64,000 bases of DNA from Escherichia coli. GTDB taxonomy: Bacteria > Pseudomonadota > Gammaproteobacteria > Enterobacterales > Enterobacteriaceae. This document shows positions 8,267 to 50,512 of this stretch, in pieces (the stretch's first letter is position 1; each line of letters begins with the position of its first letter). The notes under the pieces were generated by a model. That model saw only the letters and a list, made by a program, of their open reading frames with translations. It was not told the origin of the DNA and did not search any database. The position numbers and the translations under genes are program-made. The DNA lies in assembly GCF_013315695.1 (NCBI RefSeq), contig NZ_CP054353.1; one strand, 5' to 3'.

Positions 8267-9821
<1,555 letters not shown>

Positions 9822-10978: not shown

Positions 10979-12349
<1,371 letters not shown>

Positions 12350-37976: not shown

Positions 37977-38513
37977 ATGGCCAGCAGAGGCGTAAACAAG
38001 GTTATTCTCGTTGGTAATCTGGGTCAGGACCCGGAAGTACGCTACATGCCAAATGGTGGCGCAGTTGCCAACATTACGCTGGCTACTTCCGAATCCTGGC
38101 GTGACAAAGCGACCGGCGAGATGAAAGAGCAGACTGAATGGCACCGCGTTGTGCTGTTCGGCAAACTGGCAGAAGTAGCCAGCGAATATCTGCGTAAAGG
38201 TTCTCAGGTTTATATCGAAGGTCAGCTGCGTACCCGCAAATGGACCGATCAATCCGGTCAGGATCGCTACACCACAGAAGTCGTGGTGAACGTTGGCGGC
38301 ACCATGCAGATGCTGGGTGGTCGTCAGGGTGGTGGCGCTCCGGCAGGTGGCAATATCGGTGGTGGTCAGCCGCAGGGTGGTTGGGGTCAGCCTCAGCAGC
38401 CGCAGGGTGGCAATCAGTTCAGCGGCGGCGCGCAGTCTCGCCCGCAGCAGTCCGCTCCGGCAGCGCCGTCTAACGAGCCGCCGATGGACTTTGATGACGA
38501 TATTCCGTTCTAG
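37977..38513 (+). CDS. ssb: single-stranded DNA-binding protein
   Basis: 178-aa protein [44 protein letters not shown] with Gly/Gln-rich tail and C-terminal DFDDDIPF. Confidence 0.98.
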
Positions 38514-38553
38514 AGTTAACTTGTGAGTTATTTGTAAAGAATCCATACGCAGG

Positions 38554-38580
38554 CCCCTGTTAATTCAGGGGTTTTTTGTT
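38554..38580 (+). terminator. rho-independent terminator of ssb
   Basis: cccctg-ttaattc-cagggg hairpin followed by a T-run. Confidence 0.8.
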
Positions 38581-38671
38581 TCTATCGTCGGAAAAAGTGT
38601 CTTGTATAAATTGGTGATTTTTCACATAAAGTGTACCTTGTAATTGTGTAATGTTTATGGGGTGTGAGTGC

Positions 38672-39919
38672 ATGGAAAAGAACTACAGAGTTACAACATT
38701 TGTCATGGATAGTGGCGAGCGCTATTGCATGGTAGTGGATCGTGCTTCTGGGCTTCCCATGTATTACCCCACTCTGTTTCTAACAACTCAAATCCGCAAT
38801 AGAGAGGATGCTTTTTCAACGATGTTGGCGGCGGCTAACAACCTGGTTATGTTGTTACGCTTTGTAGAGAGTCGCGACATTGACCTTGAGCAGCGGTTTT
38901 TGACCAAAGACTTCTTCAAGCCACATGAGCTGGATGATCTGCGAGATTTTGCTCAGTGCAAACAAAGAAAGGGGCCATTAACTGTGTCCTCTACCTCTTG
39001 GTTGGCCGATGCGATGACCGATATCGTTGATAACGGGACACAGCATTCCCGGCTAACAACGTTTGCCAACTATTTACACTGGTATGCGATGCATATCTTA
39101 AAGACGACAGAACTGGAAGTTGTCGAAAAGATCAATGCTATGGCGGCGCAGATAAAGACGCGCCGACCATCTAAAAAGCGCAGAAACCACGACTTACAAG
39201 ACAGGTCATTGAGTGATGTTCAATTGGACGCGCTATTTGAAGTCATCCAGCCTAGATCAGAGTTAAACCCTTTCTCAATAGATGTGCAGCGCCGCAATCG
39301 GCTGATGATCTTACTTCTGTTTTATCTTGGCATCCGAGGTGGTGAATTATTAAATATAAGAATACAGGACATAGATTTTAGCGCTAACAGGATCCGTATC
39401 GTTAGGAGAGCAGATGAACAAGCTGACTCTAGAACCAATGAGCCTAATGCTAAAACTAGAGAACGGCTCTTACCGTTGGCTGAATCCTTAGCTCAAGAAC
39501 TGCATAGTTATATCCTTCAAGATCGCCGGAAAGTCAGAAATGCGAAGAAAAATGACTATCTGTTTGTAACTTACAAGAGTGGACCAACTCTGGGAAATCC
39601 TATCTCCAAAGGGGGATATCATAAAATTTTTTCCGTAGTCAGGTCTATATCACCGCAATTGTATGCAGCGACAGGACATTCGCTCCGCCACACTTGGAAT
39701 CGCAAGTTTTCAGAAAGAATGGATGCCATGAATGAGCAAGTCAGCGAGGAACGCCAAGAGCAACTTCGTTCGTACTTAATGGGCTGGAGAGATGGCTCGG
39801 GAACCGCAGCGACTTACAACAAGCGTTTCATTCGGCAAAAAGGTTTTGAGGCCGCCTTGGCATTACAAGCAGGTAACGGCACTAGCTTGCCAGAGGACTT
39901 CAAGGATGACCATGAATAA
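38672..39919 (+). CDS. tyrosine recombinase 1 of 3 (phage-integrase family)
   Basis: Integrase motifs: box-I Arg region LLFYLGIRGGELLNIRIQDIDF, GHSLRHTW (H-x-x-R) and LMGW...TAATYNKRF (catalytic Tyr). Alternative ATG starts at 38651 and 38657. Confidence 0.8.
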   Translation: MEKNYRVTTFVMDSGERYCMVVDRASGLPMYYPTLFLTTQIRNREDAFSTMLAAANNLVMLLRFVESRDIDLEQRFLTKDFFKPHELDDLRDFAQCKQRKGPLTVSSTSWLADAMTDIVDNGTQHSRLTTFANYLHWYAMHILKTTELEVVEKINAMAAQIKTRRPSKKRRNHDLQDRSLSDVQLDALFEVIQPRSELNPFSIDVQRRNRLMILLLFYLGIRGGELLNIRIQDIDFSANRIRIVRRADEQADSRTNEPNAKTRERLLPLAESLAQELHSYILQDRRKVRNAKKNDYLFVTYKSGPTLGNPISKGGYHKIFSVVRSISPQLYAATGHSLRHTWNRKFSERMDAMNEQVSEERQEQLRSYLMGWRDGSGTAATYNKRFIRQKGFEAALALQAGNGTSLPEDFKDDHE

Positions 39920-41444
39920 CCTCTTACTTGGGTTAGTACCAGAACGAATCCGTGCCAGGGCCAATGGCTACTCTTTTCTGTTGTATGACACATCGTGGAC
40001 ATTGGATAGAAATATCACTATTAATCTTGCTGATATTCACCATTACTTGTCAGATGGGACGCTAGATGGCTGCCTGCGTACACTGGCGTTTTATGCATCC
40101 AATCGTTCTTCTTCTCATACAAAAAATATTCTTGAACGGTTTCAGCACATGCTGCGTGAGACTGACGCGAGAGAAATTACTGATACGGTATTGATTAATT
40201 ATCGGTCGATGCTGTCGCCTGCAACAGAATGGTATCTAGCAACCATCCGTGGCTTTCTTCGATCCTGGCACGAACTGGGCTATCCCGGCATCAGTAAGGA
40301 GGTGAACCGCTTGCTAGATGGCTGGACGCTAAAGGGTAATCGTAAGGGGGATGCGGTTAAGCGCATGGATCCTCAAGAGGGGCCACTGACGGATAATGAG
40401 CTGACAGCGTTTAACGAGGGGGCTGTTCGGGCTTATGAAAAGAGCTTAATTACTATAGCTGAGTTGGCTATAGCACTTGGCACCAGTCATACAGGACGTC
40501 GTCCCATTCAGATCTCGCTGCTTCGTGTGGTCGATGTCCTTTGTGGTAAAAATGGAAAGGGAGAGCCCTTCTATGTGTTGAATGTGCCGCGAGCCAAGCA
40601 GCGCAGCAGCTCTTTCCGAATAAACTTCAAACCATTTGCAATATCACTGGAACTATGGGCAATCCTGAGTGCTCAGGCAAGAAATGCGATTGCGCAGGTT
40701 GAAAATCGTTTGGGGTTTGAATTGCAGGAAGATGACCGGCAGCAAATCCCTCTTTTTCCTGATCTTGATGTGTTAGATGCCGTCCAATCTCCTTATGAAT
40801 TCCGCCAACTGCATGCTACCGACAAACTCCACATTCCCGCCGCAGAGATAACCGACACCCTCCAATACATCGTAGAAAAGTCCGACATCCGGTCGGAACG
40901 TACCGGTGAGCTATTACATATCAATGCTCGTCGTTTTCGTTATACCACAGGCACACGAGCTGCCCGGGAAGGCTTTGGCGAGCTGGTGATTGCGGAACTG
41001 CTTGACCACGCGGACACCCAAAACGCAGGCGTTTACATCAAGAATATCCCCGAGCATGTGAAAAAGCTTGATGAGGCGGTTGGCTTCCAATTAGCACCAT
41101 ACGCTCAGGCCTTTGTCGGGGCACTTGTCGATTCAGAGAGAGACGCGCATCGAGGTAACGACCCTACCAGTCGTATTCGGACCGAAATGGGTCAGGGTGT
41201 TGGTACTTGTGGAGAACATGGCTTTTGTGGTGCCAATGTTCCTATTCCTTGCTACACCTGCATGCATTTCCAGCCTTGGCTGGACGGCCCACATGAAGAT
41301 GTCTATCAAGGACTGCTCAACGAACGTGAACGGGTGAAAGAGATAACTGGCGACATCCAGATTGCTGCCGTACTTGATCGCAGTATTATCGCGCTGGCAG
41401 ATGTGATCATGCGTTGTGCAAAACGTCGTGAAGAGCTTAGTTAA
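39905..41444 (+). CDS. tyrosine recombinase 2 of 3, with C-terminal Cys-rich region
   Basis: Start ATG overlaps the stop of recombinase 1 (translational coupling); ARRFRYTTGTRAA ... LLDHADTQNAGVYIK resembles the R/H-x-x-R ... Y catalytic region; Cys cluster CGEHGFCGANVPIPCYTCMHF. Confidence 0.7.
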
Positions 41445-41460
41445 CAGGGAGCAATAACCA

Positions 41461-43494
41461 ATGGCTGAGATTTTCCTGTTTAAGCCAAAGGCTACGCTGA
41501 CAGCAGCAGAAAACCTTGAAGCATTCATATCCCAGTGCCGAGATCAATTGACTGTATTCGGCTCTGATCTCACTTGGGAAGATCCTGTTTGGCCAAACAT
41601 AACTGTATTTGCCAAGTTGGGCATTATTACGAGAAAACCCATACTGGAAGAGACGCAAGACCCTGCTTTCATTGATTTTGCCAAAGCCTATTTCCGTTAC
41701 CAGCAGGGGCATAGCCTCTCTAGGGCAAAGAATGAAAGTAAAGCCCTCCGTGCGGTTGAGGCGGCTTTGCTTCAAGTAAATGGAAACGCAAATATTGATG
41801 GCCTGTCGATTTCTGTGCTGGATGAAGCAGCTGAATTGGCAAAGCATTACTACTCCGATGGCTCCGCATATCATTGTGGCCGTGAGATTGAGCGGCTGGC
41901 TAAGTTTGTAGCTGAAAACCAGCTTGTATCAAGTGCTGTACAAAATTGGGTCAATCCAATTAAACGTGCAGAGGATAAGAACAAAACGAGCAGAAAGGCG
42001 AAGAAAAATAGGGAAGATAAACTTCCGAGTGATATTGCTCTTAATGCGTTGGCGGAAATTTTTGCCAACGACCCAATTCATGAGCGAGACATATTTACAA
42101 CATCGGTTTTTGCCATGTTGATGTCGGCACCTTCACGTATTACTGAGGTGTTAGCACTGCCTGTGGATTGCGAGGTTTTTGAAACGGATCGTGAAGGGAT
42201 AGAACGATATGGTTGGCGTTTTTTTGCGGGGAAAGGCTATGAGGGTGATATCAAATGGATACCCACCGTGATGGTCGGTATAGCTAAGACAGCCGTAGCT
42301 AGAGCTAGAGTGCTCTCTGAAAATGCACGACAACTGGCCAAGTGGATCGAGAAACACCCGAATAAGTTTTACCGCCATGCTAACTGTCCCAGTGTAGCCG
42401 ATGATGAGCCATTGACGATGAAGCAGGTTTGTATGGCGCTCGGTTTTGCACATTACTCTAAAAAGACGTGCAGGTCGTGTCTTGGTAATCGAGGTTTAGC
42501 TAAAGAGGATGGTGTACATACTCTAAATAGCCTGTGGCAGCACACAATGGCGCGTTTACCGGATGGCTTTCCGTGGTTTGATAAAGACAAGGGAATTAGG
42601 TACAGCAATGCCTTGTTTGTACTGAACGTAAATCAGTTCCACGGGAACAGAGGATGCATACCAGTTGAGTTACATAAGCCAACCAATAATTTCTTCAACA
42701 GTGATCTGACGCCTCGTCTGTCCTTGAAAGGAAAACATGCCAGTATCTTTGATCGCCATGGTTACCATGCTGTAAACGGAGAGCCGGTGAAATTAACCTC
42801 ACATCAGGCTCGACACCTGCTCAACACCATTATCCAGCGCGGTGGCCTGTCAAACTTGGAAATTGCCAAGTGGTCGGGGCGGGCAGATGTGAAACAGAAT
42901 CGAACTTACAACCACATGACTGAATACGAACTGGTTGGCATTGCTGAACGCCTTGATCCCACAACAGCGCTATTTGGGCCTGCTGGCGAGGTGGCAAAGC
43001 ATCTGCCCGTGACTATGCAGGAGTTCAATACCTTAGAGCATGCCGCAGTCCATGTGACGGAGTATGGCTACTGTGTGCATGATTACACCATGAGTCCTTG
43101 TGAGAAATTCCGAGATTGCGTCAATTGTACCGAACAGGTTTGCATCAAAGGCGATGATGCTGAAAAGTTGGATCGCATTAAGATACGTCTGGAGAAATTA
43201 GAGCGACTGTTTTTTCTTGCTGACGCAGCAGTGGAAAGTGGTGAGATAGGAACTGATCGCTGGTATCAGTACCACAAGAAAACTGTTACCCGGCTTCGTG
43301 AACTAGTGGCTATTTTAGAGAATCCAGACATTGAAAATGGTGTCCAGATTAAGCTCCGGGGCAATGATTTCAGCCAGCTTCGCCGTGTTGTCGCAAAGAC
43401 GTCTATTGTGGCCATCGAGCAAAAAGGCAAAGAAAGTGAAGAAGCTGTGATGTTAGATGATTTGACAACTTTGTTAGGAGGTGGCCTTGGCTAA
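41461..43494 (+). CDS. tyrosine recombinase 3 of 3 (677 aa), with C-terminal Cys-rich region
   Basis: LTSHQARHLLNTIIQRGG ... WSGRADVKQNRTYNHMTEYE (H-x-x-R-H ... Y); Cys cluster YGYCVHDYTMSPCEKFRDCVNCTEQVC; begins 16 bp after recombinase 2. Confidence 0.75.
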   Translation: MAEIFLFKPKATLTAAENLEAFISQCRDQLTVFGSDLTWEDPVWPNITVFAKLGIITRKPILEETQDPAFIDFAKAYFRYQQGHSLSRAKNESKALRAVEAALLQVNGNANIDGLSISVLDEAAELAKHYYSDGSAYHCGREIERLAKFVAENQLVSSAVQNWVNPIKRAEDKNKTSRKAKKNREDKLPSDIALNALAEIFANDPIHERDIFTTSVFAMLMSAPSRITEVLALPVDCEVFETDREGIERYGWRFFAGKGYEGDIKWIPTVMVGIAKTAVARARVLSENARQLAKWIEKHPNKFYRHANCPSVADDEPLTMKQVCMALGFAHYSKKTCRSCLGNRGLAKEDGVHTLNSLWQHTMARLPDGFPWFDKDKGIRYSNALFVLNVNQFHGNRGCIPVELHKPTNNFFNSDLTPRLSLKGKHASIFDRHGYHAVNGEPVKLTSHQARHLLNTIIQRGGLSNLEIAKWSGRADVKQNRTYNHMTEYELVGIAERLDPTTALFGPAGEVAKHLPVTMQEFNTLEHAAVHVTEYGYCVHDYTMSPCEKFRDCVNCTEQVCIKGDDAEKLDRIKIRLEKLERLFFLADAAVESGEIGTDRWYQYHKKTVTRLRELVAILENPDIENGVQIKLRGNDFSQLRRVVAKTSIVAIEQKGKESEEAVMLDDLTTLLGGGLG

Positions 43495-43906
43495 GCATCT
43501 GGACAATAGAGACATTAACGCCATCGTAAATCTAATTCGAGGATGGAAGGAACCAAAACTGTCCTGGTCAGCAATTTGTGAGGCGGCAGAACCATTGGTC
43601 GGAAAGTTGCCGTCAAGACAGTCCCTTAATGCACATGAGGCAATAGTGACTGCCTATCAAACAAAGAAAGAGGCGCTTAAAGGCCGTGGCCCCAAAAATC
43701 CGCGTCCAGCTAGTTTGAACATTGCAGCCGCGAGGATTGTGAATCTTGAAAGCGAAATCGAAGAGCTTAAGGAAGAGAACCGGAGGTACAAACAACAGTT
43801 TGTGATCTGGCAATACAATGCATACAAATATGGAATGACAGAACATCAACTTAATGCGCAGCTGACAAAGATTGACCGTGAGCGCTCTGATGGAGAAAGA
43901 AGATAG
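43481..43906 (+). CDS. small recombinase-associated protein (141 aa, predicted coiled coil)
   Basis: ORF start overlaps the recombinase-3 stop by 14 bp; charged, helix-prone sequence (LESEIEELKEENRRYKQQF); placement is like TnpC of Tn554-type elements. Confidence 0.6.
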   Translation: MALAKHLDNRDINAIVNLIRGWKEPKLSWSAICEAAEPLVGKLPSRQSLNAHEAIVTAYQTKKEALKGRGPKNPRPASLNIAAARIVNLESEIEELKEENRRYKQQFVIWQYNAYKYGMTEHQLNAQLTKIDRERSDGERR

Positions 43907-43981
43907 TTGCTGAGTACGATATCGAGGGTACATTTCTCTGTGTAGGGGTAGTTATTTACAAAAAAATAGGAGAATAATTAA

Positions 43982-46900
43982 ATGGTCAAACCAAACTGGG
44001 ATAACTTTAAAGCTAAATTTAGTGAGAATCCTCAAGGTAATTTTGAGTGGTTTTGCTACTTGTTGTTCTGTCAAGAATTCAAAATGCCCGCAGGTATATT
44101 TAGATATAAGAATCAATCTGGTATCGAAACTAATCCAATAACCAAAGATAATGAAATTATCGGTTGGCAATCTAAATTCTATGACACAAAATTGTCGGAT
44201 AACAAAGCTGATCTTATAGAAATGATTGAGAAAAGCAAAAAGGCTTATCCAGGATTAAGTAAAATCATTTTCTATACTAATCAAGAGTGGGGGCAGGGGA
44301 GAAAGTCCCATGAACCTGAAGGCGATAAGAACGCTGATAATTATTTGGAAACTGTCGGAAATAGTAACGATCCCAAAATAAAAATTGAAGTTGATCAGAA
44401 AGCATATGAGTCGGGTATCGAAATAGTATGGAGAGTTGCTAGTTTTTTTGAATCACCGTTTGTAATAGTTGAGAATGAAAAGATTGCTAAACATTTCTTC
44501 TCCCTTAATGAAAGCATCTTTGATTTATTAGAAGAAAAGCGCAAGCACACAGAAAATGTTTTATATGAAATTCAAACCAATATAGAGTTCAAAGACAGAA
44601 GTATTGAAATTGACAGACGACATTGTATAGAACTTCTACATGAGAATCTAGTTCAGAAAAAAATTGTCATCGTCAGCGGAGAAGGTGGGGTTGGAAAAAC
44701 AGCAGTTATCAAAAAAATTTATGAAGCAGAAAAACAATACACTCCTTTCTATGTCTTTAAGGCTAGCGAGTTTAAAAAGGACAGTATTAATGAGCTATTC
44801 GGTGCGCATGGCTTAGACGATTTCTCTAATGCTCATCAAGACGAATTACGTAAAGTCATAGTCGTAGATTCTGCTGAAAAGCTTTTAGAACTGACCAATA
44901 TCGATCCTTTTAAAGAATTCCTGACTGTTTTAATAAAGGATAAATGGCAGGTTGTTTTCACAACCCGTAACAACTACTTGGCAGATCTGAACTATGCTTT
45001 CATAGATATTTATAATATAACTCCTGGAAACTTAGTAATAAAGAACCTTGAACGCGGCGAGCTAATAGAGTTATCTGATAACAATGGATTTAGCCTTCCT
45101 CAAGATGTTCGATTATTAGAACTAATCAAAAATCCATTTTATCTAAGTGAATATTTGAGGTTCTATACCGGTGAAAGCATCGATTATGTGAGCTTCAAAG
45201 AAAAGCTTTGGAATAAGATTATTGTCAAAAATAAACCTTCTCGGGAGCAGTGTTTCTTAGCGACTGCTTTTCAGCGGGCTAGTGAGGGCCAATTTTTTGT
45301 CTCCCCGGCATGTGATACTGGAATTTTAGATGAGTTAGTTAAAGACGGAATTGTCGGCTATGAAGCTGCTGGTTACTTCATTACACATGATATATACGAG
45401 GAATGGGCATTAGAAAAGAAAATTTCTGTCGATTATATCCGTAAAGCGAACAATAACGAGTTCTTCGAAAAAATAGGAGAATCACTTCCTGTTCGCCGTA
45501 GTTTTCGGAATTGGATATCTGAACGATTGCTTTTAGATGACCAGTCCATAAAGCCTTTTATCGCAGAAATAGTCTGTGGAGAAGGAATATCAAATTTTTG
45601 GAAAGACGAGTTATGGGTAGCTGTCCTTCTTTCCGATAATTCAAGCATATTTTTTAATTACTTTAAAAGATATTTACTTAGTAGTGACCAGAATCTATTA
45701 AAAAGACTTACTTTCTTATTGAGGCTTGCTTGCAAGGACGTTGATTACGATCTGCTTAAACAGTTAGGTGTAAGTAATTCAGATCTGCTTTCCATTAAAT
45801 ATGTTCTTACTAAGCCTAAGGGAACTGGTTGGCAGAGTGTGATCCAATTTATCTATGAAAATTTAGATGAAATAGGGATCAGAAATATTAATTTTATACT
45901 TCCTGTGATTCAGGAGTGGAATCAAAGAAACAAAGTGGGTGAAACGACTCGATTATCTAGTTTGATAGCCCTAAAATATTATCAATGGACTGTAGATGAG
46001 GATGTCTATTTATCCGGAAGGGATAATGAGAAAAATATTCTGCATACGATTCTTCATGGGGCGGCCATGATTAAACCTGAAATGGAAGAGGTTTTAGTTA
46101 AGGTTCTTAAAAATAGGTGGAACGAGCACGGTACCCCATATTTCGACCTTATGACCTTAATCCTTACTGACTTAGATTCATATCCGGTTTGGGCATCTCT
46201 CCCGGAATATGTTCTACAATTGGCAGATCTGTTCTGGTATCGGCCACTTAAAGAAACAGGCGAACGTTATCACAGTATGGATATTGAAGATGAGTTCGGT
46301 CTATTTAGGTCTCATCACGACTATTATCCAGAAAGTCCATATCAGACTCCTATATATTGGTTACTACAATCACAGTTCAAAAAAACAATAGACTTTATTC
46401 TTGATTTTACGAACAAGACAACGATATGTTTTGCCCACTCCCATTTTGCTAAAAACGAAATTGAAGAAGTCGATGTCTTTATTGAAGAAGGAAAGTTTAT
46501 AAAGCAATATATATGCAATCGTCTGTGGTGCTCATATCGAGGAACACAGGTCTCTACCTACTTACTTTCATCAATTCATATGGCATTGGAAAAATTTTTT
46601 CTTGAGAATTTTAAAAATGCAGACTCGAAAGTGTTGGAAAGTTGGCTTCTTTTCTTGTTAAGAAATACCAAGTCAGCTTCTATTTCTGCAGTAGTTACGA
46701 GTATTGTACTTGCATTCCCTGAGAAGACATTCAATGTAGCTAAAGTACTATTCCAAACAAAGGATTTCTTCCGTTTTGATATGAATCGAATGGTTCTAGA
46801 CAGAACACATAAAAGTTCATTAATCTCCCTCAGGGATGGCTTTGGCGGTACAGATTACAGAAACTCTTTGCACGAAGAAGATAGAATTAAAGCTTGCGAT

Positions 46901-48745
46901 GATGTGCATAGAAATACTTATCTTGAAAATCTTGCCTTGCATTATCAAATTTTCAGGAGTGAAAATGTAACGGAGAAAGATGTCATTGAAAGGCAACAAG
47001 TGCTCTGGGGTATTTTCGATAAATACTATAATCAGCTTCCAGATGAAGCTCAAGAAACTGAAGCCGATAAGACGTGGAGGCTCTGCTTGGCAAGAATGGA
47101 TCGGCGAAAGATGAAAATAACTACCAAGGAGAAAGATGAAGGGATTGAGATATCATTCAATCCTGAGATTGACCCTAAACTAAAGCAATATAGTGAGGAA
47201 GCAATAAAGAAAAACTCCGAGCATATGAAGTATGTAACGCTGAAACTATGGGCAAGCTATAAAAGAGAAAAGGATGAACGTTATAAGAATTATGGAATGT
47301 ATGAGGACAATCCGCAAATTGCTTTACAAGAGACCAAAGAAATAATAAAAAAGCTTAATGAGGAAGGGGGTGAAGATTTCAGACTATTAAATGGTAATAT
47401 ACCAGCAGACGTTTGTTCTGTATTACTGTTAGATTACTTTAATCAGTTGAATAATGAAGAGAGAGAATATTGTAAAGATATTGTTCTAGCATATTCTCAA
47501 CTTCCGTTGAAGGAAGGCTATAATTATCAGGTACAAGATGGGACAACCTCGGCAATTTCAGCCTTACCCGTGATTTATCATAATTATCCAATGGAAAGGG
47601 AGACTATAAAAACAATATTACTTTTGACACTGTTTAATGACCACTCTATTGGAATGGCAGGTGGGCGCTACTCAGTATTTCCTAGTATGGTGATTCATAA
47701 ATTATGGCTAGACTATTTTGATGATATGCAGTCTCTATTGTTTGGTTTTTTGATTTTAAAGCCAAAGTATGTAATTCTTTCAAGAAAAATCATTCATGAA
47801 AGTTATCGTCAAGTAGACTATGACATTAAAAAAATAAATATTAATAAGGTGTTTTTAAATAACTATAAGCATTGCATATCAAATGTCATCGATAATAAAA
47901 TATCTATAGATGATTTGGGAAGTATAGATATAGTTGATCTACATATTTTGAACACAGCTTTCCAATTAATTCCAGTTGATACTGTTAATATTGAACATAA
48001 GCAATTGGTTTCCTTAATTGTTAAAAGATTTTCTACAAGCCTATTGTCAAGTGTTCGAGAAGATAGAGTTGATTACGCTCTTCGGCAGTCTTTCTTGGAA
48101 AGATTTGCCTACTTTACGCTTCATGCGCCCGTGAGCGATATTCCCGATTATATAAAACCTTTTCTTGATGGTTTCAACGGTTCAGAGCCTATTTCAGAGT
48201 TATTTAAAAAATTTATTCTCGTCGAAGATAGATTAAATACTTACGCCAAATTTTGGAAGGTTTGGGATTTGTTTTTTGATAAAGTGGTTACTTTGTGCAA
48301 GGATGGAGATAGGTATTGGTATGTAGATAAAATTATAAAAAGTTACCTTTTTGCTGAATCTCCATGGAAAGAAAACTCTAATGGTTGGCACACATTTAAA
48401 GATAGCAATAGTCAATTCTTTTGCGATGTATCTAGGACTATGGGCCATTGCCCTTCAACTTTATATTCTCTTGCCAAATCTTTGAATAACATTGCCAGTT
48501 GCTATCTTAATCAAGGTATAACCTGGCTTTCAGAAATGTTGTCGGTTAATAAAAAGCTATGGGAAAAGAAATTGGAAAATGATACTGTTTATTTTTTAGA
48601 ATGTTTGGTTAGGCGGTATATTAACACTGAGCGTGAGCGAATTAGACGAACCAAACAGTTGAAAGAAGAGGTCTTAGTAATATTGGATTTTTTGGTAGAG
48701 AAAGGATCTGTTGTTGGTTATATGTCACGGGAAAATATTCTGTGA
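43982..48745 (+). CDS. large STAND-type P-loop NTPase with N-terminal Mrr/PD-(D/E)xK-like domain; candidate Avs-like antiviral sensor
   Basis: 1587-aa ORF, about one third GC. Walker A IVIVSGEGGVGKTAV; Walker B VIVVDSAEKL; sensor-1-like VVFTTRN; N-terminus FEWFCYLLF...SGIETN...IIGWQSKFY...KIIFYTNQEW resembles Mrr catalytic-domain motifs; long C-terminal region of more than 1000 aa. RBS-like GGAG upstream. Confidence 0.75.
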   Translation: MVKPNWDNFKAKFSENPQGNFEWFCYLLFCQEFKMPAGIFRYKNQSGIETNPITKDNEIIGWQSKFYDTKLSDNKADLIEMIEKSKKAYPGLSKIIFYTNQEWGQGRKSHEPEGDKNADNYLETVGNSNDPKIKIEVDQKAYESGIEIVWRVASFFESPFVIVENEKIAKHFFSLNESIFDLLEEKRKHTENVLYEIQTNIEFKDRSIEIDRRHCIELLHENLVQKKIVIVSGEGGVGKTAVIKKIYEAEKQYTPFYVFKASEFKKDSINELFGAHGLDDFSNAHQDELRKVIVVDSAEKLLELTNIDPFKEFLTVLIKDKWQVVFTTRNNYLADLNYAFIDIYNITPGNLVIKNLERGELIELSDNNGFSLPQDVRLLELIKNPFYLSEYLRFYTGESIDYVSFKEKLWNKIIVKNKPSREQCFLATAFQRASEGQFFVSPACDTGILDELVKDGIVGYEAAGYFITHDIYEEWALEKKISVDYIRKANNNEFFEKIGESLPVRRSFRNWISERLLLDDQSIKPFIAEIVCGEGISNFWKDELWVAVLLSDNSSIFFNYFKRYLLSSDQNLLKRLTFLLRLACKDVDYDLLKQLGVSNSDLLSIKYVLTKPKGTGWQSVIQFIYENLDEIGIRNINFILPVIQEWNQRNKVGETTRLSSLIALKYYQWTVDEDVYLSGRDNEKNILHTILHGAAMIKPEMEEVLVKVLKNRWNEHGTPYFDLMTLILTDLDSYPVWASLPEYVLQLADLFWYRPLKETGERYHSMDIEDEFGLFRSHHDYYPESPYQTPIYWLLQSQFKKTIDFILDFTNKTTICFAHSHFAKNEIEEVDVFIEEGKFIKQYICNRLWCSYRGTQVSTYLLSSIHMALEKFFLENFKNADSKVLESWLLFLLRNTKSASISAVVTSIVLAFPEKTFNVAKVLFQTKDFFRFDMNRMVLDRTHKSSLISLRDGFGGTDYRNSLHEEDRIKACDDVHRNTYLENLALHYQIFRSENVTEKDVIERQQVLWGIFDKYYNQLPDEAQETEADKTWRLCLARMDRRKMKITTKEKDEGIEISFNPEIDPKLKQYSEEAIKKNSEHMKYVTLKLWASYKREKDERYKNYGMYEDNPQIALQETKEIIKKLNEEGGEDFRLLNGNIPADVCSVLLLDYFNQLNNEEREYCKDIVLAYSQLPLKEGYNYQVQDGTTSAISALPVIYHNYPMERETIKTILLLTLFNDHSIGMAGGRYSVFPSMVIHKLWLDYFDDMQSLLFGFLILKPKYVILSRKIIHESYRQVDYDIKKININKVFLNNYKHCISNVIDNKISIDDLGSIDIVDLHILNTAFQLIPVDTVNIEHKQLVSLIVKRFSTSLLSSVREDRVDYALRQSFLERFAYFTLHAPVSDIPDYIKPFLDGFNGSEPISELFKKFILVEDRLNTYAKFWKVWDLFFDKVVTLCKDGDRYWYVDKIIKSYLFAESPWKENSNGWHTFKDSNSQFFCDVSRTMGHCPSTLYSLAKSLNNIASCYLNQGITWLSEMLSVNKKLWEKKLENDTVYFLECLVRRYINTERERIRRTKQLKEEVLVILDFLVEKGSVVGYMSRENIL

Positions 48746-48840
48746 TGTAGTTGAAAATAATAATTTTAATGAGAGCTTTTCCAATTTAGGCTCCAGGGAT
48801 TGGAGCCTTTTTATTATCGAAAAGATTAATATCTTATAAG

Positions 48841-49059
48841 TCAATCAGTAAAACGCAGCAAAGCTCGTTGCTCTTGAATGTTCACTCCGTGATAAATTCT
48901 TTGATTACCACATAAATAACAAGAACAAGCACAAGGGGTGCAGTAAATTTTCCCTACAACTTTTTCAGTTTTAGCCAACGCAATTCGATATGTTTTTCTC
49001 TTAGATTTTAACCGAGATATATGATGACGACGCCATGCCCGATTTCTAACCATTTCCAT
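48841..49059 (-). CDS. small basic Cys-rich ORF (72 aa), possible zinc-ribbon protein or gene remnant
   Basis: ORF with RRHHISRLKSKRK and C-x-x-C-x-C...C; lies between the convergent NTPase gene and the 273-aa gene; coding status uncertain. Confidence 0.25.
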   Translation of the reverse strand: MEMVRNRAWRRHHISRLKSKRKTYRIALAKTEKVVGKIYCTPCACSCYLCGNQRIYHGVNIQEQRALLRFTD

Positions 49060-49283
49060 TCACTCCAATTTTCTACCGCGGTGTTATACCGCGCCCGTAT
49101 CAATCTTTGGAGTTCGATATCGATCTGACCTTTCATGAATACCTCGGAATTTATCAATAAAGTGAGTGCTATATCATAGCTTATGGGATGAAAGTTTGAT
49201 ATTTAGCACTTTTCAGCTTTAGGTAAAGCTGTCCTCAATAAAGCTAATTTCTTGTTTATTAATGGAATTTCTATGTGGAAGTG

Positions 49284-50105
49284 TTAGAAATCCTGTTTTA
49301 CTTTATCCATCGTTAAAACTTTACTTATTATATAAGGATCATAATTTCTTATACTCATAAGGCAATTTATCAAATTGGAAACGTGGCTATCATCAGGTAT
49401 AAGTATATATTTAATATCATCGAAAGAAAAACCAATGCCAAATTCAGAGAATTTTTTACTTAAGACGGCCTTCTGGTTAGGTTCCACCACTCGCTCTAAA
49501 TTTAGGCTAGGCCATAAATCGCCAACAAACGGATGCGGTACATATCTCCATTCTTTTTCGTCAGCGTAGATATAATTCTCAATGGTTTTTTCGTTCGTCC
49601 TTTCTAATTTCCCTTTATAATTTTTCATATAGCGTAATAAATTATAAAGGTCAGCGTACTCTTCTTTAAGGCTTTCAAAATACTTACGCTCTTTATTATC
49701 AAGGATATGCCTTTTCGACCATAGCGGAATTAACGCATCCTTTAGTTTTCTAATTCTTTTATTATACTTTGAAAATAATTCACTGCCTTGATTCATGTAT
49801 AGAACGGGATGGAGATCATTTTTCTCAGCCCATTCTTTTGTTAACCCAAATCCAAATTCACCATATTTTCCACTATGATCTTTAATCTGAGAAAGCTTGA
49901 TGTCACAGAATGAAACCATTGGTACTGCGAAATTTCTTCTTCCTTTTACTCCGACTATGCGTTCACGGGCAAGAAATGGTTTAAAATAGAGTTCTGTTAA
50001 AATGCTATAGAATGCCTCTTCATTTTTAGTAAAGTGAAACAACGTTGTTGGATGTAAACTATTAACTGCTTGTATAACTGTTTCTTGGTTTTCTATAGCA
50101 CTCAT
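49284..50105 (-). CDS. AT-rich hypothetical protein (273 aa), possible abortive-infection or defence-associated protein
   Basis: Clean ORF convergent with the NTPase gene; no family identified with certainty from sequence alone (LFHFTKNEEAFYSIL N-terminal motif). Confidence 0.6.
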   Translation of the reverse strand: MSAIENQETVIQAVNSLHPTTLFHFTKNEEAFYSILTELYFKPFLARERIVGVKGRRNFAVPMVSFCDIKLSQIKDHSGKYGEFGFGLTKEWAEKNDLHPVLYMNQGSELFSKYNKRIRKLKDALIPLWSKRHILDNKERKYFESLKEEYADLYNLLRYMKNYKGKLERTNEKTIENYIYADEKEWRYVPHPFVGDLWPSLNLERVVEPNQKAVLSKKFSEFGIGFSFDDIKYILIPDDSHVSNLINCLMSIRNYDPYIISKVLTMDKVKQDF

Positions 50106-50512
50106 ATATTAACTGTTCCATAGTGTAAAACCTGACTTAGCAAAGGTTATCATACTAGTCTTTGTACTGTAAGCACACTTGGTTTAATTCCACGCACTTT
50201 TTGAGATTTCCGGTTTTTTGATCTCTTACCAAAATCTATGCCAGATTGAATCAAAGGTCCGAGCTGGGTCACCAAAAAAAGTAAAATTATGCACTTTGAT
50301 AGATTATATTTTAACTAAATTCTTTACAGTTAAATCATTTCTTATGCCTTAGTTTCTGATAAAAAAGGTTTTTTTTCACGATTTATAAGTATCAGGTTAT
50401 GTGAACCGTTCTGATTTGTCGTTAAAACAATAGGTTATATTGTTTTAAGGTGGATGATTAAAGCATCTGCCAGCCATAAAAAAGAAGCCTCCGTTTTGGA
50501 GGCTTCTACATA

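Follow-up and report, generated by a model that had tools for sequence, protein, structure and literature searches.

A conserved small cysteine-rich gene between avs4 and an AbiGi-family gene in a GInt island of Escherichia coli

P2 Ogr, P4 Delta and Mu Com are proteins of about 60-75 aa, encoded on mobile elements, which hold zinc through Cys residues (four ligands in two separated pairs); Ogr binds RNA polymerase, and Com binds an mRNA stem-loop, thereby unmasking a ribosome-binding site. In the hok/mok system, control is exerted by an overlapping upstream frame together with a fold-back that hides the Shine-Dalgarno (SD) sequence. With regard to the carrier elements, GInts are defined by the presence of ginABCD, cargo and a short AT-rich 3' end (Bardaji et al. 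2017, PMC5385486), the ginABCD genes being essential for excision and integration; no conserved cargo or 3'-end gene is part of the GInt description (PMC5385486). The present analysis deals with a small gene of the E. coli Avs4 island, a defence locus that ranks among the best studied; about 7% of complete E. coli genomes carry the gene there. The gene is missing from RefSeq annotation (PGAP leaves it unannotated in the complete E. coli genomes) and has therefore been overlooked by screens built on annotated proteins. Features of the window (the whole stretch of DNA analysed, 64,000 nucleotides) are given in Table 1.

Table 1. Positions of the small gene, its expression signals and its neighbours in the window
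Feature	Position	Strand	Basis and remarks
Whole mobile island (GInt element)	38512..50405	.	comparison with the empty K-12 site; gene order
avs4 (AVAST type 4 STAND NTPase/nuclease, 1587 aa)	43982..48745	+	RefSeq annotation of identical DNA; weak STAND/NB-ARC Pfam matches
Hairpin terminator AGGCTCCAGGGATTGGAGCCT with T-run, after avs4	48788..48808	+	33 nt past the stop codon of the small gene
CDS of the small basic Cys-rich protein	48841..49053	-	70 aa from the second ATG; the listed ORF runs to 49059 (72 aa)
TGT-GCT-TGT-TCT-TGT codon repeat (encodes C-A-C-S-C)	48919..48933	-	in-frame gains and losses of 6 bp recur here (hot spot)
Upstream overlapping frame, 42 codons	49008..49136	-	open in 6/6 aligned variants; ATG, GTG or TTG starts
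SD region UUGGAGU, 3' arm of the predicted sequestering helix	49062..49068	-	sequence; centroid and consensus folds
Leader hairpin CGCGGU-AUAAC-ACCGCG plus 3 outer pairs	49074..49099	-	six-pair stem kept in 7/7
Anti-SD ACUCCAA, 5' arm of the helix predicted to pair with the SD	49107..49113	-	predicted folds, 7 leaders
Extended -10 promoter-like element TGATATAGC	49168..49176	-	six aligned island variants; start codon about 115 nt downstream
AbiGi-family gene (273 aa), upstream of the small gene, same strand	49284..50105	-	PF10899, E=1e-24; RefSeq annotation

A conserved coding gene in the convergent gap

The convergent avs4 (+) and AbiGi-family (-) genes are separated by a gap of 538 bp (48746..49283), in which the minus-strand ORF of 72 aa described by the sequence-only reading (48841..49059, ATG start) was found as described. 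Translation is likely to begin at the second ATG (49053), giving a product of 70 aa; MVRNR is the start in most relatives, and the search for a ribosome-binding site yielded a GGAG 9 nt ahead of the second ATG and just 3 nt ahead of the first. The protein is strongly basic (pI 10.4; 16 K+R versus 3 D+E) and its five Cys residues fall in the run C-T-P-C-A-C-S-C-Y-L-C. As an ORF of at least 72 codons arises in 12% of 2000 dinucleotide-preserving shuffles of the gap (P about 0.12), the length by itself lies within chance, and the reality of the gene is shown by its conservation instead.

Among 12 related clusters (64-99% identity), the products measure 68-72 aa, except for a 45-aa fragment and a 56-aa frameshifted copy; dN/dS between diverged pairs is 0.16-0.32 (at dS 0.6-1.3) and the indels among relatives are multiples of three. 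The in-frame behaviour is visible at the codon repeat, where strain XJ23PTE1 carries a 6-bp deletion in an otherwise identical gene, the same two-codon gap occurs in P0005 and P0008, and P0002 has a two-codon insertion. The exact protein is present on at least 1000 public contigs, and the gene sequence is at least 99% identical across 360 E. coli records. The ORF is a genuine coding gene, conserved and under purifying selection. Since it is retained in related islands even with other flanking cargo, the possible refutation offered with the sequence-only reading (no conservation across homologous islands) fails. A remnant of a longer gene, as had also been proposed, is contradicted by the relatives, which have identical start and stop, and by the wider family, whose members are typically 60-130 aa.

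Some close copies nevertheless look decayed, judging from their substitutions and frames: the Pantoea copy has 8 nonsynonymous versus 1 synonymous change and has lost the invariant C45, one plasmid copy is shorter by the first 13 codons (4/4 substitutions nonsynonymous), and a frameshifted variant occurs on 8 contigs. Along with the shuffle result, the silence of PGAP and the missing usual partner gene (see below), such mostly nonsynonymous changes would suit an ORF that arose by chance in a non-coding spacer, or a pseudogene in decay that now has no function in the island. This explanation is highly unlikely in view of the full-length conservation (dN/dS about 0.2 at 64-99% identity), the near-identity among the E. 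coli records, and a family of about 1800 clusters, all of whose near-invariant residues are present in the window copy.

Island context and exchange of cargo neighbours

By its gene order and ends, the surrounding element is a GInt: ginA-D (about 38651-43906) are followed by cargo and then by an AT-rich 3' end (50106-50405; 300 bp, 31% G+C). It resembles the described elements in its three integrase-like genes and 139-aa ginD, its short direct repeats (CCGTTCT flanks the island) and its insertion at the last codons of ssb, which leaves SSB unchanged. In related GInts, the small gene is retained with its promoter and leader beside differing cargo, namely Avs4 and AbiGi (window), Avs4 and a DEAD helicase, DRT3 and Hachiman, DRT3 and an AbiEi_2-family (AbiE-like) gene, Detocs, or an AAA_13 ATPase. 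The module thus stands beside DRT3, Detocs and the AAA_13 ATPase with no avs4 present. As the cargo partners differ, the small protein is probably not an Avs4 or AbiGi subunit, and the gene is independent of any single neighbour. Likewise, its identification as AbiGii of the two-gene AbiG system was rejected, as no Pfam or NCBIfam model matches it at E<=1 and the module is found without any AbiGi gene.

Identity to the window ORF is 86-100% beside Avs4 and 64-74% beside other cargo, while ginD stays 94-98% identical across these GInts (98% for ginC of the L198 element); the sequence of the small gene tracks the cargo rather than the gin backbone. This clustering by 3'-side cargo, the constant position directly beside defence genes in this island family and the basic, possibly zinc-binding product would be expected of a protein that regulates Avs4 and/or AbiGi or joins them as an accessory subunit, such as a transcription factor or an inhibitor preventing auto-immunity. 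Such a role is improbable: the partners on one side change completely (from Avs4 to DRT3, Detocs or the AAA_13 ATPase), those on the other side may be AbiGi, Hachiman, a helicase, the AbiE-like gene of the AbiEi_2 family or nothing, homologues occur in lytic phages and plasmids without any defence gene nearby, and the ORF has no AbiGii-like feature. Furthermore, Avs4 is reportedly a single-protein sensor-effector, which was counted against an Avs4 subunit. The mention of EcAvs4 tetramers (PMC11897194) was listed on the same side.

The persistence of the gene in one GInt family while the cargo on both sides is exchanged could also point to a role in the element itself, as a small DNA-binding protein controlling the direction of excision and integration or marking the cargo boundary for cassette exchange. 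Recombination directionality factors are typically small and basic, the small gene is the last one before the 3' end in the simplest GInt versions, and the counts in E. coli are similar (module in 368 genomes, ginCD-like DNA in 422). Against this stand a same-family GInt with Detocs/dGTPase cargo from which the small gene is absent, a sequence that follows the cargo and not the gin backbone, relatives in non-integrating lytic phages, and the report of ginABCD as essential for excision and integration with no 3'-end gene described (PMC5385486); a GInt factor is accordingly given a low probability. As a GInt core gene the ORF was rejected, being missing from the Detocs/dGTPase element and having an identity of 64-100% where that of ginD is 94-98%.

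Promoter, leader and terminator

The upstream edge of the conserved module is formed by the TGnTATAAT element, and homology between variants ends after the ORF or the terminator; a miniature mobile element was considered for this module, and no convincing inverted repeats were found to flank it. An extended -10 promoter-like element stands out in the six-variant alignment (in the TGnTATAAT form in 3/6); the copy in the window is degenerate (TATAGC), and a consensus scanner was silent on it. Of the convergent terminators suggested earlier for the gap, one hairpin was found, whose T-run lies on the plus strand, and which therefore serves avs4; none was found downstream of the AbiGi gene. This avs4-side terminator is kept in Enterobacter beside a different gene, where an A-T pair has become T-A by compensatory change, and the DRT3-linked variants lack it. 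Since no terminator lies between the AbiGi gene and the small gene and the -10 element is degenerate, read-through transcription is equally possible.

The conserved leader appears, on the basis of predicted folds, to sequester the ribosome-binding site of the small gene. The 7-bp anti-SD:SD helix forms in 7/7 aligned leaders (98% of cells paired) and also in the single-sequence centroid fold; being invariant, it yields no covariation proof. Taken with the inner hairpin, it has 95% of cells paired versus 33-43% when the partners are slid, and one outer pair of the hairpin varies as A-U, C-G and G-C. The stability of the leader fold is no better than that of shuffles (z=-0.73), and the covariation is thin, comprising 2 pairs among 7 sequences related to one another. 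Other pipelines annotate the upstream frame as a gene of 42 aa; as a real protein it is left unproven, because its pN/pS of 0.70 in its own frame does not beat another frame. It may be a leader peptide or a mere by-product of conservation at the RNA level.

An SD hidden by a predicted helix, along with an overlapping frame kept open from ATG, GTG or TTG starts, brings to mind a tightly repressed toxic peptide (an addiction or abortive module), whose leader and upstream frame would work like mok/hok. One distant member of the family overlaps a gene of the HicB antitoxin family directly downstream of it, and many relatives stand in a two-gene operon with a partner of about 96 aa. Yet the hydrophilic, basic product differs from the membrane toxins of type I systems, the pairing with HicB was seen once, the gene is solo in the window with no candidate antitoxin, and neither a plus-strand promoter in the leader nor an antisense promoter or RNA was found; a toxic peptide is thus very improbable. 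A type I toxin-antitoxin system in the strict sense (small hydrophobic membrane toxin with cis-antisense RNA) was rejected on the hydrophilic product, the lack of a plus-strand promoter and an Rfam scan of 48600-49400, which gave no match at E<=1.

Protein family and likeness to known regulators

Profile searches place the small protein in a large family of phages and mobile elements which includes T5.055 of phage T5 and PHROG 4499. The PHROG 4499 match (hmmscan E=5.7e-16) aligns residues 5-67 to profile positions 6-71 of 88, and a profile built from 128 members recovers the window protein at 1.6e-26 and T5.055 at 6.7e-29. Related clusters number 1804 at E<=1e-3 and 381 at E<=1e-10, with T5.055, jumbo-phage genes and plasmid genes among the profile matches, and tblastn gave matches in 461 phage and 153 plasmid records. 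The PHROG 4499 and T5.055 records hold no recorded function (T5.055 being a hypothetical protein), and literature searches on T5.055 and on Avs4 with AbiGi found nothing, while one on deletions in the tRNA region of T5 yielded no useful information. The small ORF has no match in Pfam or NCBIfam at E<=1, and scans of 128 relatives against Pfam, NCBIfam and PADLOC gave nothing meaningful; isolated weak matches to TT_ORF2, Csf1 and REase_II were set aside as noise. PADLOC-DB assigned 0 families to the window protein and two isolated weak matches among the 128 members, and no PDB sequence matched either of two profiles.

In 70-aa numbering, C43, C45, C48 and R52 are each conserved at 99% in the family, H10 and H11 at 84% and 82%, and R8, R9, R14, K16 and R19 at 90% or above; the window protein keeps R8, R9, R14, K16, R19, Y22, G34, P40, C43, S44, C45, C48, R52 and E61. 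With conservation at about 99% for three Cys and one Arg and at about 83% for the HH pair, a C3H zinc site comprising the three invariant Cys and one conserved His is plausible. A zinc ribbon, as suggested by the sequence-only reading, does not hold: there is one Cys cluster (C-x-C-x2-C) where a ribbon has two CxxC knuckles, the zinc-ribbon models of Pfam gave no match at E<=1, and the AlphaFold2 model is helical with no strands. This model, obtained with 128 sequences (pLDDT 79), comprises helices and a Cys loop; a first model with 14 sequences was poor (pLDDT 60).

The genomic neighbourhoods of relatives were collected with a 14-sequence alignment and are biased towards proteins having CSC[YWH][LMI]CG[NH]. 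The nearest outgroup of the window gene (47-57% identity, same length and motifs) is a two-gene operon of enterobacterial plasmids and islands, exemplified by the Cys-rich WP_023228541.1 of Salmonella plasmid pCFSAN044945, in which the Cys-rich gene is accompanied by the approximately 96-aa partner ending in YYY or YFY. The partner lies 28-67 nt downstream of the Cys-rich gene in 9/91 member groups, and Yokenella has a fused or deleted form of the operon. The window differs in that the small ORF is followed by the terminator and the end of avs4 instead of the partner, so that the solo copy may be functionally incomplete. The iterative search for the partner was contaminated by a fusion ORF, and the early rounds alone were used; homology of the partner, a 105-aa Rhodocyclaceae neighbour and T5.054 (DUF7295) was not supported (hhalign probabilities <10%, no match in Pfam).

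Occurrence in the early/tRNA region of virulent T5-like phages, in jumbo Erwinia phages, in conjugative plasmids and in islands is typical of counter-defence genes, and some members adjoin an RNA ligase with RlaP, RtcB with an HD protein, or an RNA 2'-phosphotransferase, or lie within tRNA arrays in several phage lineages. The small gene could hence be an anti-defence or inter-element competition factor that hitch-hikes in the island, with tRNA- or RNA-directed defences as possible targets. This alternative is unlikely, albeit with some appreciable weight: no tRNA lies within 5 kb at 45/50 non-T5 viral loci, the RNA-repair neighbours occur in just a handful of the 91 groups, the neighbours are otherwise very heterogeneous (terminase, ClpP, DnaB, KilA-N, type I R-M), and the small protein itself has no PADLOC or other match. 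An association with tRNA arrays as a general rule was rejected, because tRNAs are nearby at just 5/50 of those non-T5 loci.

The explanation which we favour, at about even odds, is that of a self-contained gene for an autonomous, zinc-stabilised, nucleic-acid-binding accessory protein, gated by its leader and carried as GInt cargo. The unit would comprise an extended -10 promoter belonging to the gene itself, about 110 nt of leader and a CDS of 70 codons, ending, in most variants, in a hairpin terminator common to the convergent neighbour. A zinc ion would be held by C43, C45, C48 and one His of the conserved RRHH motif, tying the N-terminal basic helix to the central loop to give a compact module that may bind nucleic acid, with RNA as a slightly likelier ligand than DNA; the protein would act alone and not as a subunit of Avs4 or AbiGi. 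Pairing of the anti-SD with the SD would keep translation low, and ribosomes on the overlapping upstream frame may open the helix. The gene would then be an accessory cargo of the GInt family, placed on the 3' side of the defence system, of whatever kind, that comes after ginD. A broader proposal, which we regard as doubtful, is that the family forms a new class of zinc-knuckle RNA-binding proteins with which phages (T5.055), plasmids and islands might modulate translation or protect tRNA in conflicts between mobile elements and host immunity, the GInt copies being cassette companions; if true, a diverged copy would travel with each GInt defence cassette, tuning or counteracting abortive-infection systems.

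The family has many members, in virulent phages as well as plasmids and islands, and is not covered by any Pfam model. As the small gene stays beside whichever defence system the GInt carries, it offers a cheap and specific target for asking whether small companion genes influence defence cassettes or the exchange of cassettes. Even a merely hitch-hiking hypothetical gene would allow the annotation to be corrected and the cargo boundary of these islands to be marked.

Among known proteins, the closest likeness is to T5.055 (YP_006883.1), with which the small protein has in common the N-terminal RRHH..R.K..R..Y motif and the TP..CSC..CGN.R core; T5.055 differs in its length (103 aa), its acidic C-terminal tail and its place in a virulent phage, in the early region that carries the tRNA genes. 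No similarity of the family, whether in sequence or in fold, was detected against Pfam and the PDB. With hok/mok, the locus compares in the upstream frame overlapping the start of the small gene and in the predicted conserved anti-SD:SD helix, and differs in that the searches revealed neither an antisense RNA nor a promoter for one, the product is no hydrophobic peptide of the membrane, and the structural support is weak (the shuffle z-score and two covarying pairs noted above). Ogr, Delta and Com may be taken as candidates for how the small protein works, membership of their families not being claimed; unlike them, the family combines one C-x-C-x2-C cluster with an HH pair far from it. Compared with the GInt description, the small gene is a module that recurs on the cargo side in this GInt family of enterobacteria without being universal.

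Evidence for a gene between avs4 and the AbiGi-family gene

The window lies in the E. coli chromosome near uvrA-ssb and yjcB-pdeC-soxSR, and among 5,426 complete E. coli genomes 358 contain DNA identical to 48700-49330; there, the genes on either side bear the RefSeq names 'AVAST type 4 anti-phage nuclease Avs4' and 'abortive infection system antitoxin AbiGi family protein'. The coordinates of these genes reproduce the 538-bp gap (48746..49283) of the sequence-only reading, and the ORF list contains the 72-aa minus-strand ORF reported there, with a product that is indeed basic (16 K+R against 3 D+E; pI 10.4) and Cys-rich (run C-T-P-C-A-C-S-C-Y-L-C). The convergent terminators suggested for the gap hold on one side only: a hairpin with its T-run on the plus strand would terminate avs4, and none follows the AbiGi-family gene. 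An Rfam scan of the gap gave zero matches. The AbiGi-family gene stands alone, without an AbiGii-like partner, and the 300 bp upstream of it (50106-50405) also form the AT-rich 3' end of the island.

Features of the island and of the small gene (nucleotide positions in the window)
Feature	Position	Strand	Basis or remark
GInt-type element with avs4	38512-50405		empty K-12 site; flanked by repeat CCGTTCT
ginA-D	~38651-43906		gin genes of the island
avs4	43982..48745	+	RefSeq annotation of identical DNA
Terminator-like hairpin	48788-48808	T-run on +	hairpin scan
Small ORF	48841..49059	-	ORF list
42-codon upstream frame, overlapping the small-gene start	49136-49008	-	six-variant alignment
UUGGAGU, Shine-Dalgarno region	49062-49068	-	consensus folding
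Hairpin enclosed by the ACUCCAA:UUGGAGU helix	49074-49099	-	consensus folding
ACUCCAA	49107-49113	-	consensus folding; pairs with UUGGAGU
TGnTATAAT-type element, window form TGATATAGC	49168-49176	-	six-variant alignment
AbiGi-family gene	49284..50105	-	PF10899 E=1e-24; RefSeq annotation

The length of the ORF alone is no proof, since, when the gap is shuffled with its dinucleotides preserved, 12% of the shuffles yield an open frame of 72 codons or more. Conservation in related islands is apparent: 12 clusters at 64-99% identity were recovered from 5.8 billion proteins, and diverged copies (dS 0.6-1.3, dN ~0.2) show dN/dS of 0.16-0.32. Apart from one fragment and one frameshifted copy, the clusters measure 68-72 aa, which disfavours the proposed remnant of a longer gene. 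A 70-aa product is most likely, because the relatives usually start at MVRNR, the second ATG (49053), and GGAG lies 9 nt before this ATG and only 3 nt before the first. Length differences between copies are always multiples of three, and indels cluster at 48919-48933 (minus-strand TGT-GCT-TGT-TCT-TGT repeat, inside the Cys cluster), where exactly two codons are gained or lost in clusters P0002, P0005 and P0008 and in strain XJ23PTE1, otherwise identical to the window, which lacks exactly 6 bp; these changes look like frame-preserving slippage. At least 1000 public contigs carry the identical protein as a 'hypothetical protein' (GenBank, UniRef), and other pipelines also call the gene; no PGAP feature covers it in any sampled RefSeq complete E. 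coli record.

We hold with high confidence that the ORF is a genuine gene. A non-functional ORF is very improbable: the window copy retains every nearly invariant family residue. Signs of decay are seen in some close copies, namely a frameshifted form on 8 contigs, a plasmid deletion (pCUPSTF6_1_02) fusing the first 57 AbiGi codons to ORF codon 13, and a Pantoea copy with 8 nonsynonymous changes and 1 synonymous change that has lost the invariant C45.

Protein family and predicted structure

The ORF matches PHROG 4499 (labelled 'unknown function'; E=5.7e-16), and scans with Pfam, NCBIfam and PADLOC gave zero matches. A profile built from 14 diverse members recovered, from 1.84 billion cluster representatives, 1,804 proteins with an E-value of at most 1e-3, of which 381 reach E<=1e-10; most are of 60-130 aa. 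Relatives found by tblastn fall on 461 phage and 153 plasmid records; those in phages are mostly from T5-like Demerecviridae, with the gene within the tRNA-gene region (T5 has its own member, T5.055), the others being from Erwinia jumbo phages. By its sequence, the protein belongs to a large family carried by phages and mobile elements. An anti-defence factor is a real but lesser possibility.

The family consensus reads RAxRRHHxxRLKxKRxxYW...G....TPxxCSCxMCGNPRKxxGxxTxQExR; among 128 members C43, C45, C48 and R52 are conserved at 99% and H10/H11 at 84%/82%, the remaining two cysteines of the window protein not being conserved. Since the three cysteines and H10/H11 are retained, a putative C3H zinc site that would tie the Cys loop to the basic helix at the N-terminus can reasonably be inferred. 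The AlphaFold2 model from a deep alignment (pLDDT 79) has four helices, the Cys loop and zero strands, and the solved or predicted structures resembling it are only uncharacterised family members. The protein is not the zinc ribbon proposed earlier, and what stands of that proposal is a real gene for a small, possibly zinc-binding protein.

Island, changing cargo and leader

The insertion overlaps the last ssb codons and alters only the stop (TGA to TAG), leaving SSB unchanged. A trio of integrase-like genes and one gene of 139 aa are followed by the cargo, and a 3' end 300 bp long (31% G+C) comes last. The GInt definition fits this island, and several GInts likewise insert at the ssb end (PMC5385486); the site is the already known 'yjcB-ssb' defence-island hot spot (PMC11728103). 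Whole-element copies also occur in IncF plasmids, within the leading region. In two conjugative examples (L030, pEco_M23314_164; L002, pCUPSTF6_1_02) the element, spanning the gin genes through to its end past AbiGi, with ginA leaving both fetched stretches, lies beside DUF905, ParB, psiB and psiA; an IS3 interrupts the gin region of L002. In Pantoea vagans (L008), Avs4, the small gene and AbiGi adjoin ssb without ginABC, and the element looks immobilised, because all that is left is a 75-aa open frame and 79 residues that are 68% identical to ginD.

Cargo around the small gene (3' side, ginD-side cargo convergent with the small gene; beyond, cargo past it)
Locus	3' side	Beyond
Window, L021, L192, Pantoea	Avs4	AbiGi
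L016	Avs4	824-aa DEAD helicase
JX4-T, Y5	DRT3	Hachiman
L198	DRT3	AbiE-like gene (AbiEi_2 family)
L196	Detocs	nothing further
Enterobacter	AAA_13 ATPase	IS debris
L195	contig ends	only yjcB

Identity of ginD across these GInts is 94-98%, and the small protein is 86-100% identical next to Avs4 against 64-74% next to other cargo; L198, whose ginC is the closest (98%), has an ORF of 67% identity. Since ORF identity follows the cargo while ginD and ginC stay close, the small gene tracks, and travels with, the cargo on its own 3' side. A GInt core gene was rejected on this ground and because one same-family Detocs/dGTPase GInt is without the small gene; a GInt factor, although encoded within such islands, is correspondingly unlikely. 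An Avs4 or AbiGi subunit was rejected as well, the gene being kept beside DRT3, Detocs and the AAA_13 ATPase, and little weight is given to a regulator of adjoining defence genes.

In DRT3-linked islands, drt3b is separated from the small gene by a long non-coding block that these islands share in conserved form (L029 ~11700-11940; L019 ~8760-9010; columns ~800-1000 of alignment A6) and that is absent in Avs4-linked islands. It could be the non-coding RNA of DRT3 systems.

In a six-variant alignment, similarity begins at the TGnTATAAT element, exact in three variants, and continues through a ~110-nt leader into the ORF; where the copy is linked to Avs4 or AAA_13, it stops just past the hairpin terminator. 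Between variants, one base pair of this hairpin is exchanged in a compensatory way, A-T for T-A. The leader is more conserved (pS 0.25) than synonymous sites of the ORF (dS 0.6-0.9). The leader pairing is kept in 95% of cells, against 33-43% with the partners slid, and one pair is found as A-U, C-G and G-C. Support for the fold is thin, with covariation at two pairs only among seven mutually related sequences and a single-sequence z-score of -0.73. Sequestration of the Shine-Dalgarno region may gate translation of the small gene, and ribosomes on the upstream frame could possibly relieve it; this frame is open in all six variants (starts ATG, GTG or TTG), in which no coding-like substitution pattern was found. 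A repressed toxin, for which such gating might also serve, is quite improbable. The preferred reading, in which a zinc-stabilised small protein would bind nucleic acid and act autonomously as a translationally restrained accessory riding with GInt defence cargo, is given an even chance as a whole chain.

Family neighbourhoods elsewhere

With 160 further loci from genomes and viral contigs, 186 were analysed, forming 91 member groups at 80% identity with very mixed neighbours, including P4-type integrases, type I R-M, Schlafen/AlbA_2, terminase, ClpP, DnaB and KilA-N. Just one immediate partner recurs: in 9 of the 91 groups, each a close outgroup of the window gene, a ~96-aa gene lies 28-67 nt downstream; it is absent in the window and without matches in Pfam and PHROG. 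This partner is basic and ends YYY/YFY (e.g. L011 7260-7565, L040 6275-6559, L160 5163-5453), and in Yokenella (L047 6001-6321) it is fused to the Cys-rich gene.

A few members adjoin RNA-repair genes (RNA ligase and RlaP; RtcB and an HD protein; RNA 2'-phosphotransferase); like the HicB and tRNA-array placements described below, these count as leads rather than statistics. A different order recurs on Rhodocyclaceae-type contigs (L079, L080, L075, L068, L092): RtcB RNA ligase, then an HD-domain or a 355-aa protein, then a 105-aa gene with a WSWW end, and last the Cys-rich gene. Convergent to these lie a large serine recombinase gene and two that are ParB/RepB-like. At L027 6001-6722, a distant member of 133 aa shares one base with the beginning of a HicB-family antitoxin gene, occupying the usual place of HicA.

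A few members lie inside tRNA arrays, but 45 of 50 non-T5 viral loci are without a tRNA nearby. In two viral contigs of an unrelated phage lineage (L162 4749-4961, L165 5001-5213), a tRNA array surrounds the family gene, and tRNA-His begins 9 nt past its stop, a placement that resembles the arrangement in T5.
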